Origin: a virus
Lineage: Duplodnaviria > Heunggongvirae > Uroviricota > Caudoviricetes
Length of the DNA stretch: 64,000 bases
Direction: 5' to 3' (one strand)
IMG/VR virus record: IMGVR_UViG_3300028260_000001
Coordinates: 120,333 to 184,332 of that record
Shown here in pieces: positions 936 through 7,826 of this stretch. The notes below the pieces were generated by a model. That model had not been told where the DNA came from and ran no database searches. It saw nothing but the letters and a program-made list of their open reading frames with translations. The translations under genes were made by a program, and so were the position numbers. Within the stretch, counting starts at the first letter, position 1, and every line of letters starts with the position of its first letter.

Positions 936-1011
936 GGGTCATTAGTTCAATTGGCAGAACACCGGCCTCCAAAGCCGGGTGTTGGTGGTTCGAGTCCATC
1001 ATGGCCCGCCA
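936..1011 (+). tRNA. tRNA-Trp (anticodon CCA)
   Basis: Cloverleaf folded by hand: acceptor GGGTCAT/ATGGCCC, anticodon loop CUCCAAA, T-loop GGTTCGAGTCC, encoded CCA. Confidence 0.85.
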
Positions 1012-1768
1012 ATTTCATCACAGACTTCGGTCTGCAAGTCCTCTGGTCTAACACACCTTAGGCAATCGATTTTGTAAGAGCCCATGACAGGGTGTTGGGT
1101 AAGTGCACTCCACCCCACTGCGCTGAAAAGGTCGCCTGAGTCCGAATAGATGAAGGTAGAGGATCGTTTCATCACTCTCTTACAATACGTCTCTCCACTG
1201 AGAGATGCAAGACCTTGGACTTAATCCGTCCTAGGCTCTGGACTACACAGGTGTCTGATTAATCCTCAGACTAGGGCGCAGAGTTGCACTTGTGAGTTCT
1301 ATGAATGATACCCAATGACGACTGATAAAAGACTAGAGTAATCAGTTAACAGGGAAACTCGATGCCCGTACCCTCGATACCCCAAAGGCCAGATAGTCCT
1401 GGTTACTAAGGCGCTCATTCCGAAGAAGCGTGATGACTCGGCTACAACGGATTAGTAGATTCCGTCACCGGTCTACATTGAGAACCTAAGGGTTTTAGAT
1501 GTGAGGCCATCTGCACGACAGTGAGCCTTCGGGTGGTCATAGTCCCAATGAGGAAGGGCGTTTCCTCCGCGCACACGGGTGTACCTCTTGAGTGGTTACT
1601 TGGTGTGCACATATTCTCGAATACTTGCCCTCCATCGCATTCTGAAGCTGCTTGTGAGGTGAGTAGTAGATAGACCTAACTTCCGTGCTAGTCTTCATGA
1701 ACAGCGATGTGTTAGGTTGAAAAGTTCCCCAGTGGCGATCTACAAGTTTGTATAGCTGGGACTAATTA
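1012..1768 (+). ncRNA. ORF-free highly structured RNA region with group I intron-like core elements (candidate ribozyme/intron or large ncRNA)
   Basis: No ORF >=60 aa over 757 nt. CAGACTA at 1267-1273 and AGATAGTCC at 1391-1399 give the GACTA/TAGTC P7-like pairing (elements R and S). CAGGGAAACUCG GNRA hairpin at 1350-1361; multiple UUCG and GAAA hairpins. Confidence 0.3.
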
Positions 1769-1853
1769 GCCGGAATGGTGGAGTGGAATACACAACGCAC
1801 TTAAAATGCGTCGCCCATCGGGATCGCGAGTTCGAATCTCGCTTCCGGCACCA
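1769..1853 (+). tRNA. tRNA-Leu (anticodon TAA), class II with long variable arm
   Basis: Acceptor GCCGGAA/TTCCGGC, anticodon loop CUUAAAA, T-loop GAGTTCGAATCTC, CCA encoded. Confidence 0.85.

Positions 1854-3658: not shown

Positions 3659-3659
<1 letters not shown>
3639..3659 (+). promoter_or_regulatory. promoter candidate for tRNA cluster 2 (TATAAT at 3644-3649 + conserved TATACGAG)
   Basis: Perfect -10 hexamer 10 nt before the tRNA 5' end; 20-mer shared with 813-832. Confidence 0.4.
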
Positions 3660-3743
<84 letters not shown>

Positions 3744-3750
3744 ATTACCA

Positions 3751-3840
3751 GGAAGTATGGCCGAGTGGTCAATGGCTCGGGCCTTGAAAACCCGCGACCC
3801 TTAAGTGGGTCCTAGAGTTCGAATCTCTATGCTTCCGCCA
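3751..3840 (+). tRNA. tRNA-Ser (anticodon TGA), class II
   Basis: Acceptor GGAAGTA/TGCTTCC, loop CUUGAAA (31-39 C-A mismatch), 18-nt variable arm, T-loop TTCGAAT, G73, CCA. Confidence 0.8.
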
Positions 3841-3848
3841 GTTACAAA

Positions 3849-3934
3849 GCTGAGATGGCAGAGTGGTTGAATGCACGGGATTGCAAATCCTGCATCGAAA
3901 GATCTCGGGGGTTCGAATCCCTCTCTCAGCTCCA
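3849..3934 (+). tRNA. atypical class II (long variable arm, Ser/Leu-like body) tRNA with anticodon GCA (would read Cys codons UGY); discriminator U73
   Basis: Acceptor GCTGAGA/TCTCAGC, D-arm TGGCAGAGTGGTTGAATGCA, anticodon stem CGGGA/TCCTG with loop UUGCAAA, variable arm ATC-GAAA-GAT hairpin, T-arm GGGGGTTCGAATCCCTC, TCCA. Confidence 0.6.
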
Positions 3935-3935
3935 A

Positions 3936-4011
3936 GCCGCTATAGCTCAGTTGGTAGAGCAGCTGACTTGTAATCAGCAGGTCCCCGGTTCGAATCCGTG
4001 TGGCGGCACCA
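3936..4011 (+). tRNA. tRNA-Thr (anticodon TGT)
   Basis: Acceptor GCCGCTA/TGGCGGC, loop CUUGUAA, T-loop GGTTCGAATCC, CCA; 1-nt spacer to previous tRNA. Confidence 0.85.
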
Positions 4012-4090: not shown

Positions 4091-4471
4091 ATGACTCCAG
4101 AAACACTGCGTCGCCGTATTAACAATCGCCTGCTCTCTGCGGAACAACATCGTGAAATAACACAACGATTAGTAGCAGCGCAAAAGACTAAAGTAGTTCA
4201 GGTAGCCTTGCCACCTCCAACCCAAGAATGTGTGGTTGCTTACGGTTCTCGGCTAACTCCATTGCTTACACCACTGCTGGGAGATTGTACTTGGACTGAC
4301 GCCCAAATGGCGGCTGTAATCGAATCCAAGTTATATGAAGTTCGTAAGCAATTCCATGGGCCGAACAAAAGTTATGCTGACCCAGTACCTTCAGTAGAGA
4401 TCTGCGATGCTGGCCGCAGTCGATATTTCCGTCTGCTATTAAATGGTTACGAGATCGGGACTATTGGCTAA
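4091..4471 (+). CDS. hypothetical protein, translationally coupled (TAATG) to the radical SAM gene
   Basis: 126-aa ORF; AGGAAT RBS-like upstream; stop overlaps the next start. Confidence 0.55.
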   Translation: MTPETLRRRINNRLLSAEQHREITQRLVAAQKTKVVQVALPPPTQECVVAYGSRLTPLLTPLLGDCTWTDAQMAAVIESKLYEVRKQFHGPNKSYADPVPSVEICDAGRSRYFRLLLNGYEIGTIG

Positions 4472-5373
4472 TGGAAAATAAATTGATCTTCCGCGAACAT
4501 TGGTCTGAACTTGATCGGTCAGTAAACTTCGAACATCGTTTGGAAGATGGACCAGGTATGTTGGAAGCGCGGTATGTCCAACGGACTGACGATTACTTCA
4601 TCGTTTACCTGTCTTCTCAGACTGGATGTGAACAAGCCTGTCGTATGTGTTGGTTGACTCAAACAGGACAGAACAAATCTCGTGACGTTACTGTGGACGA
4701 ATATCTGCAACAAGCCGAACGAGTAATGGAACACTACGGACGACGGCTGTCTTACACCGGTAAGTTTGCTAATAAGGTCCACTTCAACTTCATGGCCCGT
4801 GGTGAACCATTGGCTAATAAGATCTTCTTGGAGAATGCCGATGAGATCTTGGGCCGCCTGCGGGACCTCGCAAAGAAATGGGCATTGACACCTAAGTTTT
4901 TGATCTCTACGATCATGCCTAAGGAGATGGGTGACTTAGCCCTGACAGATATCTTCAAAGACCCCAGCGTGTATCCTGAACTTTACTACTCAATGTATTC
5001 CACAGAGGTGAAGTTCCGTAAGCGTTGGTTGCCAAAAGCAATACCGTGTAACAATGCCTTGCGTATGCTCCGACAATGGCAAGAGCAAACAGGCAAAATC
5101 CCCAAGATTCATTACGCCTTTATCGATGGAGAAAATGACTCTGTAGACAATGTACTCGACTGCTGTAACATGGTCTATGCCTACGGTCTCACTGTGAACT
5201 GGAACATCGTACGTTACAACCCGCCGGAAGGACATGACTCAAAAGAACCACCAGAAGAATACATCTACTTCCTAGCGGATGTAATTCGAAACTTCCCTAA
5301 CGTAGGAAAGGTTAAAGTGATCCCTCGGGTGGGCACAGATGTAAAAGCTTCATGCGGTACATTCCTGAAATAA
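4471..5373 (+). CDS. radical SAM RlmN/Cfr-family RNA (adenine-C2/C8) methyltransferase-like enzyme
   Basis: LSSQTGCEQACRMCW (Cx3Cx2C as in RlmN SSQVGCALECKFC), MARGEPL, WNIVRYNPPEG and C-terminal ASCG each match an RlmN block. Confidence 0.75.
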   Translation: MENKLIFREHWSELDRSVNFEHRLEDGPGMLEARYVQRTDDYFIVYLSSQTGCEQACRMCWLTQTGQNKSRDVTVDEYLQQAERVMEHYGRRLSYTGKFANKVHFNFMARGEPLANKIFLENADEILGRLRDLAKKWALTPKFLISTIMPKEMGDLALTDIFKDPSVYPELYYSMYSTEVKFRKRWLPKAIPCNNALRMLRQWQEQTGKIPKIHYAFIDGENDSVDNVLDCCNMVYAYGLTVNWNIVRYNPPEGHDSKEPPEEYIYFLADVIRNFPNVGKVKVIPRVGTDVKASCGTFLK

Positions 5374-6190: not shown

Positions 6191-6538
6191 ATGAAATGGG
6201 AACTTGGGCGTCAAGGAACAGGTTACGAAAAACTGAAGTTGATAAACCGTTGGCGGTACTTCAGTCGTTTCAAATGGGATCTCTACTTATTGCGATATCG
6301 GGTAGGTGCAGGGATACCACGGCATCGTGATCCATTGCCAGATCACAGTCACTACAGATTAAACATCTACTTGTGGAATGCACAAGCAGGTGGTGTACCA
6401 GAACACGATGATGTGATCATAAGCAATCGCTTCTTCACATTGTTCCGTCCTGATCTACACACTCACAGCGTAAGCCAAGTAACTAAAGGTACTCGTTACG
6501 TCCTTAGTTTTGGTTTGTCTAAACGCAATACCCTTTAA
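6191..6538 (+). CDS. small 2OG-Fe(II) oxygenase-like (double-stranded beta-helix) protein
   Basis: H-R-D ... H(THS) ... R-Y-V-L-S arrangement matches the HxD/H/RxS facial triad spacing; only 115 aa. Confidence 0.5.
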   Translation: MKWELGRQGTGYEKLKLINRWRYFSRFKWDLYLLRYRVGAGIPRHRDPLPDHSHYRLNIYLWNAQAGGVPEHDDVIISNRFFTLFRPDLHTHSVSQVTKGTRYVLSFGLSKRNTL

Positions 6539-6563
6539 ACTCTATTCCATCCGCGAGAGCTAT

Positions 6564-7826
6564 ATGAAACAGACACGTACATTCGAAATCATCGGCGGTG
6601 AACCAGCTCCAGGTTCCAAGCCAATCAAAGGCTGGACCGTTGGTGTTCCAGTTGAACCCGATGCGGTTAAGCAACTCAAGAACATTGCATCGCTACCGTT
6701 CATCTATTCCCACATTGCTGTGATGCCCGATGTACATCTGGGTAAAGGTGCAACGGTAGGTTCTGTGGTTGCCACCAAAGGTGCAATCATTCCAGCAGCT
6801 GTAGGTGTTGACATCGGCTGTGGAATGGCGGCACAACGTTTGACCTTTAAGTCGACCGCACTACCAGAGTCCTTGGGTCATCTGCGTGCAGCTATCGAAG
6901 CAGCCGTTCCACATGGCCGTACTGATAACGGCGGTAAGAATGACCGTGGTGCTTTCGGTACTGTAAAGGTATTCGATCACCCAGTCAAAGCTATTCGTGA
7001 CGAAGCATTCGAACTTCGTAAGCAACTGGATTGGATCTGTGAGAAACATCCTAAGTTGGCTAAAGCAGCACAGCGTGCATGGAATCACGTAGGTACTCTC
7101 GGTACTGGTAACCACTTCATCGAACTGTGTCTGGATGAAACTGATCAAGTGTGGGTAATGCTGCATTCTGGTTCGCGTGGTATTGGTAACGCAATCGGCA
7201 CTTACTTCATCGCCAAGGCAAAAGAAGAGATGCAACGTTTCTTCATCCATCTGCCAGATGGTGACCTCGCTTACTTGCCAGAAGGCTCGAAGTATTACCA
7301 AGACTACATTGGTGCTGTATCGTGGGCACAACGGTTTGCTGCACTGAACCGTTCTTTGATGATGCATGCCACCTTGGGTGCAATCCACAACGTACTGGGT
7401 CTGCCGATCGATTCAGATATGGGTGCGATCAACTGTCACCACAACTACGTGTCGGAAGAACGACACATGGGTAACAACGTACTCGTTACTCGTAAGGGTG
7501 CCGTAAACGCTTCTCAAGGGGTGTTGGGTATTATCCCTGGGTCGATGGGTGCAAAGTCCTTTATCGTTCGTGGTAAGGGTAACCGTGATTCGTTCTGCTC
7601 GTGTTCGCATGGCGCAGGTCGAGTGATGTCTCGTACCCAAGCAGCTAAAACCTTTACGCTCGAAGATCACATCCGTGATACCGCGGGTGTAGAATGCCGT
7701 AAGGATATCGACGTGATCGATGAAACTCCAAAGGCATACAAGAACATCGAAGACGTAATGGCTGCACAAGAAGAACTGGTAGAAATCGTTCATACGCTCA
7801 AACAGTTCCTTTGTGTAAAGGGGTGA
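6564..7826 (+). CDS. rtcB: RtcB RNA 3'-phosphate/2',3'-cyclic-phosphate-5'-OH ligase
   Basis: Hallmark motifs MPDVHLGKG, GVDIGCGM, SHGAGR; start placed at MKQTRT (GAGAG RBS) although the ORF opens at 6510. Confidence 0.85.
   Translation: MKQTRTFEIIGGEPAPGSKPIKGWTVGVPVEPDAVKQLKNIASLPFIYSHIAVMPDVHLGKGATVGSVVATKGAIIPAAVGVDIGCGMAAQRLTFKSTALPESLGHLRAAIEAAVPHGRTDNGGKNDRGAFGTVKVFDHPVKAIRDEAFELRKQLDWICEKHPKLAKAAQRAWNHVGTLGTGNHFIELCLDETDQVWVMLHSGSRGIGNAIGTYFIAKAKEEMQRFFIHLPDGDLAYLPEGSKYYQDYIGAVSWAQRFAALNRSLMMHATLGAIHNVLGLPIDSDMGAINCHHNYVSEERHMGNNVLVTRKGAVNASQGVLGIIPGSMGAKSFIVRGKGNRDSFCSCSHGAGRVMSRTQAAKTFTLEDHIRDTAGVECRKDIDVIDETPKAYKNIEDVMAAQEELVEIVHTLKQFLCVKG

Follow-up and report, generated by a model that had tools for sequence, protein, structure and literature searches.

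The window analysed here is a 64,000-nucleotide (nt) stretch of Caudoviricetes DNA (positions 120,333 to 184,332 of IMG/VR record IMGVR_UViG_3300028260_000001), and the gene in question is a cysteine transfer RNA (tRNA) gene on its plus strand at 3849-3934, tRNA-Cys(gca), which is 86 nt long including the encoded CCA. The gene most likely specifies a functional phage cysteine tRNA that decodes UGU and UGC and in which an additional hairpin is tolerated, a judgement on expression, charging and neutrality of the arm that is drawn from sequence comparison. The comparisons point to a normal tRNA-Cys body whose variable loop has taken up a short hairpin between position 44/45 and positions 46-48. 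In textbooks and reviews the class II tRNAs, with their long variable arm, comprise only those for Leu, Ser, selenocysteine (Sec) and bacterial Tyr. An earlier note on this DNA had drawn attention to the Cys anticodon and U73 of this long-armed tRNA, and that combination indeed lies outside the class II set.

The gene was identified with ARAGORN and reads GCTGAGA TG GCA-GAGTGGTTGAA-TGC A CGGGA-TTGCAAA-TCCTG C ATC-GAAA-GAT CTC GGGGG-TTCGAAT-CCCTC TCTCAGC T CCA. The Rfam tRNA model RF00005 matches 3849-3931 with 57.7 bits (E = 7e-11; gathering score 29). The score against model R1, which has the gene itself in its seed, is 87.9 bits. The fold drawn by ARAGORN has a 7/5 branch (acceptor stem of 7 base pairs (bp), T stem of 5 bp) with U8 and G9 between the acceptor stem and the D-arm. 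The anticodon stem has 5 bp, one of which is G.U, and the 7-nt anticodon loop contains U33, A37 and the anticodon GCA at 3883-3885. The universal tRNA positions U8, A14, G18 G19, U33, GTTCGAATC and the encoded CCA are all intact. The structural details given in the earlier note, i.e. the 7-bp acceptor stem, GCA, U73, the 14-nt arm with ATC-GAAA-GAT and the T-arm, are thus all present according to ARAGORN and Rfam. A refold that makes another triplet the anticodon, named in that note as its refutation, was looked for and no alternative register pairs; Rfam also places GCA in the anticodon columns. An 8/4 refold was rejected as well, the eighth acceptor pair being U8:C65.

The window comes from a Pseudomonas jumbo phage related to phage D6; across 62% of a 12-kb query the two share about 79% nucleotide identity. 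D6 is a member of the phiPsa21 group (PMC11139720). Syntenic orthologues in the order Ser-Cys-Thr, with a radical-SAM gene and RtcB downstream, were found in D6, in RVTF4 and in two IMG/VR contigs of about 315 kb (L015 and L020). These orthologues hardly differ in the acceptor stem, the discriminator U73 or the anticodon arm. The extra arm changes in a compensatory manner (ATC/GAT, TTC/GAA, TGC/GCA), as does the T stem (GGGGG/CCCTC, and GCTGG/CCAGC in RVTF4), and the arm persists across a 20-35% divergence of the flanking genes. The synteny and the compensatory changes in the extra arm and T stem together show, far beyond chance, that this is a real tRNA gene.

Covariation shows that the extra arm is a real helix. 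A gap-free alignment (A2) of 23 distinct sequences, consisting of the window tRNA and tRNAs with an equal arm length from the bacterial class Phycisphaerae, has 99.8% of the stem cells paired, with changes on both sides in 16 of the 23 pairs. Covariation is seen at each of the three extra-arm pairs, with GC, UA, AU and CG types. Such values did not arise in any of 500 shuffles, and sliding the partners by 1-3 columns gave 30-52% paired cells. In a second alignment (A3), in which 15 phage sequences were aligned by a covariance model built from A2, 98.5% of the cells are paired. The extra helix is 88% paired in A3, with compensatory changes at all three pairs.

Body identity and occurrence of the long-arm form

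The earlier note had described the body as Ser/Leu-type with a D-arm like that of Ser tRNAs, which was not borne out. The traits concerned are common in class I tRNA-Cys of phages (82 distinct sequences from viral contigs), where G13.A22 is found in 58 and A.A in 11 (69/82 with purine13.A22), G9 in 71, G15:C48 in 54 and a 17-nt D-arm in 38. The tRNA-Cys of Escherichia coli has an equal 3-bp D stem with A13.A22. The D-arm of the window tRNA is therefore that of a normal tRNA-Cys. The bodies were also compared by position profiles from which the anticodon loop, the variable region and the positions fixed by the search pattern had been left out. The window tRNA scored best with the class I Cys profile (23.9 bits versus 11.5 bits for Ser), and the Tyr profile was outside the top five. 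The class I Cys profile was also the best for 21 of the 24 phage long-arm Cys tRNAs, and leave-one-out controls of the profiles were 81-98% correct. Among the options in the earlier note a Cys tRNA with unusual architecture is thus the best supported, on the basis of GCA, U73 and a body of Cys type.

The origin of the arm is illustrated by two Phycisphaerae loci (L111 and L132), in each of which a 74-nt and an 81-nt tRNA-Cys lie close together within 8 kb. The short and long forms have a common acceptor stem (GGCCGCG in L111; GGCCGCG and GGGCGCG in L132) and the D-arm type is alike, and where class I has the loop TTGTC the long form has T[GGGAAACC]TTC. These pairs indicate insertion of a hairpin into the variable loop, which also explains the layout of one base, hairpin and three bases in the window tRNA. 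Remolding of a tRNA-Tyr, a candidate raised by the BLAST matches and the R1 ranking described below, was rejected since the Tyr profile is poor and the Phycisphaerae pairs point to insertion, with a formal reservation for the phage lineage.

A BLAST search with the tRNA alone retrieved long tRNA-Cys(GCA) genes from unrelated phages in GenBank: E. coli phage EcS1 (Straboviridae), Vibrio phages pv27, phiKT1024 and Va1 and Caulobacter phage CcrPW. For EcS1, pv27 and CcrPW the gene is annotated in GenBank, labelled simply as tRNA-Cys. The same search gave class I tRNA-Cys genes with a similar body in Vibrio phage D479 and Xanthomonas phage RTH11, and phage tRNA-Tyr genes at 76-79% identity.

IMG/VR was scanned with a pattern consisting of the Cys anticodon arm and a T-arm 15-32 nt later, U73 being outside the pattern. 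This gave 25 loci, 23 of which have an ARAGORN tRNA-Cys(gca) of 81-92 nt; the other two (L012 and L026) match model R1 at 51 bits. With the spacing set to that of class I, the pattern gave at least 120 viral class I tRNA-Cys, so the long-arm forms are a minority of viral tRNA-Cys and not a rarity. Their variable region drifts freely in length, from 10 to 20 nt. When the long-arm pattern was run on one genome per bacterial species, at least 120 stretches (8-kb loci) were obtained, and among the matches listed all 120 were from Planctomycetota, class Phycisphaerae (L034-L153, e.g. L042 6198-6280 and L109 910-992). Each of these has a tRNA-Cys(gca) of 81-88 nt with a 7/5 branch, U73 and an arm of 12-18 nt, mostly with GNRA loops, and it is usually the sole tRNA of its locus. 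U73 was present in all 116 parsed long- and short-arm tRNA-Cys with a readable discriminator, and, among long-arm tRNA-Cys with a readable discriminator, in 24/24 from phages and 88/88 from Phycisphaerae.

Extra arms are not confined to tRNA-Cys. Hairpin arms were observed in other phage tRNAs of class I families, 81-87 nt in length: Asn(GUU), Thr(UGU and GGU), His(GUG) and Met(CAU). They are found at L154 1590-1675 (phAPEC8), L020 9812-9896, L008 1494-1578 (PX29), L016 1014-1094, L025 8887-8973, L007 2748-2834 (CcrPW) and L021 6998-7084. Cys is the clearest isotype with such forms, and in several of the others the discriminator fits the anticodon (Asn G73, His C73). Three tRNA-Ile(UAU) of 88-94 nt were predicted by ARAGORN (L011 4629-4720, L018 1170-1263 and L030 4225-4313), with a 23-24 nt 'variable' segment that has the motif CCAGATTAG in common. 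UAU is also the predominant anticodon of allo-tRNAs. In phage CcrPW (L007 1602-2017) a permuted transfer-messenger RNA with the tag VNDNDAPVMEQRLAA was predicted by ARAGORN 36 nt downstream of the long-arm tRNA-Cys; the stretch of the GenBank record that was examined carries no annotation for it.

Decoding and rival explanations

The tRNA would probably be transcribed within the Leu-Ser-Cys-Thr array and then processed. Charging with cysteine would be carried out by the cysteinyl-tRNA synthetase (CysRS) of the Pseudomonas host via the GCA anticodon and U73, and the charged tRNA would read UGC and UGU in phage mRNAs. The result would be an extra supply of tRNA-Cys for a phage with a codon usage much more A/T-rich than that of its host. 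The GC content of the window is 47.5% and TGT makes up 53% of its Cys codons. The cysteines in CxxxCxxC of the radical-SAM protein and in 'DIGCGM' of RtcB are encoded by TGT, and with such codons at catalytic cysteines the phage would depend on UGY meaning Cys. The anticodons UAA, UAG, UGA and UGU of other phage tRNAs read A-ending codons, which would fit the usual role of codon supply in a GC-rich host. There is one tRNA-Cys gene per genome in E. coli, and Pseudomonas is assumed to be similar in this respect.

GCA and U73 are the most important CysRS identity elements (PMC5389517). The long arm appears to be compatible with CysRS, by analogy with selC* tRNA-Cys, for which charging by CysRS is supported by in vitro cysteinylation and in vivo opal suppression (PMC5389517). 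The extra arm most likely has no part in identity but is tolerated, and it may mildly stabilise the core, given that its length and sequence drift freely and that it is thermodynamically weak.

Some observations weigh against this reading. At -29.8 versus -24.6 kcal/mol, the minimum free energy fold computed for the bare sequence differs from the cloverleaf, which is common for tRNA genes and uninformative. The stability of the extra hairpin alone is only -0.3 kcal/mol, and in the orthologues L015 and L020 the arm is reduced to 2 bp and a U.U mismatch. E. coli CysRS reportedly prefers a core of G15:G48 and A13:A22, according to Hou and co-workers. The window tRNA instead has G15:C48 and G13.A22, as do most class I phage tRNA-Cys. 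U73 is compatible with seryl-tRNA synthetase (SerRS) as well, being carried by 5 of 31 phage Ser tRNAs.

A first rival explanation keeps the Cys decoding and makes the arm adaptive: the shape would spare the phage copy from a tRNA-Cys-directed nuclease and RtcB would repair what gets cut. Such a nuclease might belong to the host, as a defence or toxin, or to the phage, as an enzyme for depleting host tRNAs. This is considered unlikely. The proximity of RtcB and its conservation in D6 and RVTF4, the retention of the arm despite the divergence of the flanking genes, and the recurrence of extra arms in phage Cys, Asn, Thr, His and Met tRNAs would all fit escape. A tRNA-Cys-specific nuclease exists, VapC4 of Mycobacterium tuberculosis (PMC13096801), and another VapC is described that cuts tRNA in the variable or anticodon loop (PMC13273310). 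The anticodon stem-loop of the window tRNA is however the canonical GGAUUGCAAAUCC, identical to that of E. coli tRNA-Cys, and nucleases that read the loop would not be evaded. Any escape would therefore have to come from the shape of the body. We know of no Cys-directed nuclease in Pseudomonas and none was found in the window. The same arm is moreover present in a free-living bacterial class, where no conflict between phage and host is needed, and its length and sequence drift freely (10 to 20 nt).

A broader proposal is that extra-arm forms have arisen repeatedly from class I tRNAs, in large phages and independently in Phycisphaerae, and that the phage arm is a selected shape mark or a second identity (partial serylation). 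Such a mark would let tRNA-directed nucleases or repair enzymes tell phage tRNAs from host tRNAs. This joint reading, mark included, is compatible with the evidence and not required by it, and is regarded as improbable.

That the tRNA is serylated and misreads UGC/UGU as Ser, as the earlier note had also proposed, is disfavoured and must be rated as very unlikely. SerRS would here recognise the long arm of a missense tRNA and Ser would be inserted at UGU/UGC, with an ambiguity like that of Candida CUG or the nematode nev-tRNAs. SerRS relies chiefly on the long variable arm and does not read the anticodon (PMC7609411). The window tRNA has the long arm, the 3-bp D stem and the enlarged D loop in common with tRNA-Ser. 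U73 would also be consistent with Ser identity, both G73 and U73 being known in allo-tRNAs as well as in phage tRNA-Ser. C11:G24, an identity element for E. coli SerRS, is present too.

The arm is nevertheless unlike that of tRNA-Ser, as seen when 31 phage tRNA-Ser from the same phage loci were compared with the 24 phage long-arm tRNA-Cys. The variable region is 16-23 nt in tRNA-Ser versus 10-20 nt in the long-arm tRNA-Cys, and the extra-arm stem is mostly 5-8 bp (at least 5 bp in 26/31) versus mostly 3-4 bp. A single unpaired base precedes the T stem in 29 of the 31 tRNA-Ser, versus usually two to five bases in the long-arm tRNA-Cys. G2:C71 occurs in 31/31 and 2/24, respectively. The discriminator is G73 in 26 tRNA-Ser and U73 in five, including the Ser(GCU) of D6 and RVTF4, versus U73 in all 24 tRNA-Cys. 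The neighbouring tRNA-Ser(UGA) in the window has a 5-bp extra stem, one unpaired base on the 3' side, G2:C71 and G73. The window tRNA-Cys differs with its 14-nt region, 3-bp stem, three unpaired 3' bases, C2:G71 and U73; its arm is short and differs in orientation from Ser arms. The body profile prefers Cys over Ser by 12 bits, U73 and GCA are retained in every member of the family, and the essential cysteines of the radical-SAM protein and RtcB have UGU/UGC codons. This architecture also recurs in more than 100 Phycisphaerae genomes, usually as the sole tRNA-Cys of the 8-kb locus.

A non-translational relic or regulatory tRNA-like RNA, i.e. a decaying class II paralogue such as a tRNA-Tyr (GUA to GCA) that is no longer charged, would agree with the BLAST matches to phage tRNA-Tyr, with the ranking of Tyr tRNAs directly below the long-arm Cys tRNAs by model R1, and with the similar D-arm, the Tyr-like layout of the extra arm (one unpaired base, short stem, about three unpaired bases) and an anticodon only one base apart, but is highly improbable for a gene with intact universal positions and an encoded CCA, 98-100% of the stem cells paired with compensatory changes across orthologues, and U73, C35 and a Cys-like body in place of the A73 (4/4 phage Tyr tRNAs) and U35 of tRNA-Tyr, with Tyr absent from the five best body profiles.

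The tRNA cluster and neighbouring genes

The tRNA-Cys gene is part of a cluster of tRNA genes (Table 1). A scan for promoters and terminators around the cluster gave nothing beyond the shuffled expectation. The radical-SAM gene lies directly downstream of the array, a position that is kept in D6, RVTF4, L015 and L020, and the protein may be an A-methylating enzyme for tRNA or rRNA that is linked to the phage tRNAs.

Table 1. Positions in the window of the tRNA-Cys gene, its structural parts and the surrounding features
Feature	Positions	Strand	Remarks
tRNA-Trp(CCA)	936-1011	+	ARAGORN
Block free of open reading frames	1012-1768		about 757 nt
tRNA-Leu(UAA)	1769-1853	+	ARAGORN
Fragment-like open reading frame, 205 amino acids	1971-2588	+	matches virion structural protein families
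Kelch-repeat protein, 319 amino acids	2631-3590	-	opposite strand
tRNA-Leu(UAG)	3659-3743	+	ARAGORN
tRNA-Ser(UGA)	3751-3840	+	8 nt upstream of tRNA-Cys; true class II
tRNA-Cys(gca)	3849-3934	+	ARAGORN
Acceptor stem, 5' strand GCUGAGA	3849-3855	+	pairs with 3924-3930; covariation in 6/7 pairs
D-arm GCA-GAGUGGUUGAA-UGC	3858-3874	+	3-bp stem, 11-nt loop, G13.A22 mismatch, G15, G18 G19
Anticodon arm CGGGA-UUGCAAA-UCCUG	3876-3892	+	ARAGORN, Rfam; identical in orthologues
Variable region, 14 nt	3893-3906	+	C44, hairpin AUC-GAAA-GAU (3894-3903), unpaired CUC ending in C48
T-arm GGGGG-UUCGAAU-CCCUC	3907-3923	+	5-bp stem, loop TTCGAAT; Rfam and ARAGORN fold
Acceptor stem, 3' strand UCUCAGC	3924-3930	+	ARAGORN drawn fold
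Discriminator U73 and encoded CCA	3931-3934	+	U73 at 3931, CCA at 3932-3934; from the sequence
tRNA-Thr(UGU)	3936-4011	+	begins 1 nt past the CCA of tRNA-Cys
Radical-SAM protein, 300 amino acids, CxxxCxxC	4471-5373	+	phrog_27142; annotated as RlmN in D6
RtcB, 'DIGCGM' metal-binding Cys	6510-7826		2.6 kb downstream of tRNA-Cys; conserved in D6 and RVTF4

The cluster is broken up by two protein-coding frames, the fragment-like one and the Kelch-repeat gene. At the corresponding site D6 has an HNH endonuclease, and the cluster therefore appears to be an insertion hot spot. In D6 and RVTF4 a tRNA-Ser(GCU) directly follows tRNA-Trp (L001 90-179 and L002 924-1013), in both cases with U73 and not G73, and the gene is missing entirely from the window (corresponding site 1011-1020).

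The block between tRNA-Trp and tRNA-Leu(UAA) has 82-90% nucleotide identity to D6, L020 and RVTF4, versus 65-73% for the flanking protein genes, and includes an invariant core of about 90 nt. No Rfam match was found for it even at E<=10. RNAalifold predicted 109 pairs from five sequences, 37 of which have compensatory double changes. The block is a candidate, on either strand, for a new large structured RNA inside the tRNA cluster.

Comparison with known long-arm tRNAs

No description of a 7/5 long-arm tRNA-Cys was found in the full-text literature (subscription journals being outside the coverage), including a review of non-canonical tRNAs (PMC7609411), and none was found for the Phycisphaerae form. 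The D6 genome paper lists 14 tRNAs without comment. Every exception that is listed to the class II rule (allo-tRNA, selC* and nev-tRNA) involves an unusual acceptor branch or miscoding, whereas this is a plain 7/5 tRNA-Cys. Several unrelated phage lineages and more than 100 Phycisphaerae genomes have retained this design. It offers a natural test case for a CysRS that tolerates an extra arm and for SerRS and the leucyl- and tyrosyl-tRNA synthetases (LeuRS, TyrRS) that reject one, a warning for annotation pipelines that assign the isotype from arm length, and a possible scaffold for engineered orthogonal tRNAs. For the phage itself it would most likely mean just an added supply of Cys-tRNA, a form moderately surprising to tRNA specialists with an ordinary function.

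Membership in the allo-tRNA or selC-like families, also suggested in the earlier note, did not hold. The selC* tRNA-Cys resembles the window tRNA in having a long variable arm, U73 and GCA (GCA or UCA in selC*), with Cys identity via CysRS (PMC5389517). It has a modified 8/4 branch and longer acceptor and anticodon stems, in contrast to the 7/5 branch, with all 12 acceptor and T pairs formed and covarying, and the 5-bp anticodon stem found here. It occurs in anaerobes that have Sec machinery (selB*, cysS*) (PMC5389517, Mukai et al. 2017), while the window tRNA is adjoined by other tRNAs, a radical-SAM enzyme and RtcB and has no Sec-machinery neighbours. The allo-tRNAs likewise combine a long variable arm with a non-Ser, non-Leu anticodon and have G73 or U73, Ser identity and varied anticodons. 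Their branch is 8/4 or 9/3 and their long D stem is closed by a tetraloop, unlike the 3-bp D stem and 11-nt loop of the window tRNA. Both families, whose members have Sec-like D-arms or longer anticodon stems, were rejected on the 7/5 branch and the D-arm. A tRNA-Sec was rejected too, since it needs an 8/5 (13-bp) branch, UCA and G73 versus 7/5, GCA and U73, and the best match in the Rfam clan is the generic tRNA.

The closest known type is the class I tRNA-Cys(GCA). It has GCA, U73, the 7/5 branch, the 3-bp D stem, purine13.A22, G9 and the GGAUUGCAAAUCC anticodon arm in common with the window tRNA, as well as G15:C48 in most phage copies. The only point of departure is the variable region, 14 nt with a 3-bp GAAA hairpin in the window tRNA versus a loop of 4-6 nt. 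The nematode nev-tRNAs are said (Hamashima et al. 2012) to be class II tRNAs with Gly or Ile anticodons that are charged with Leu, and they too join a class II shape to the anticodon of a class I family. In the nev-tRNAs the body carries Leu identity and miscoding results, whereas in the window tRNA the body and the discriminator match the Cys anticodon.

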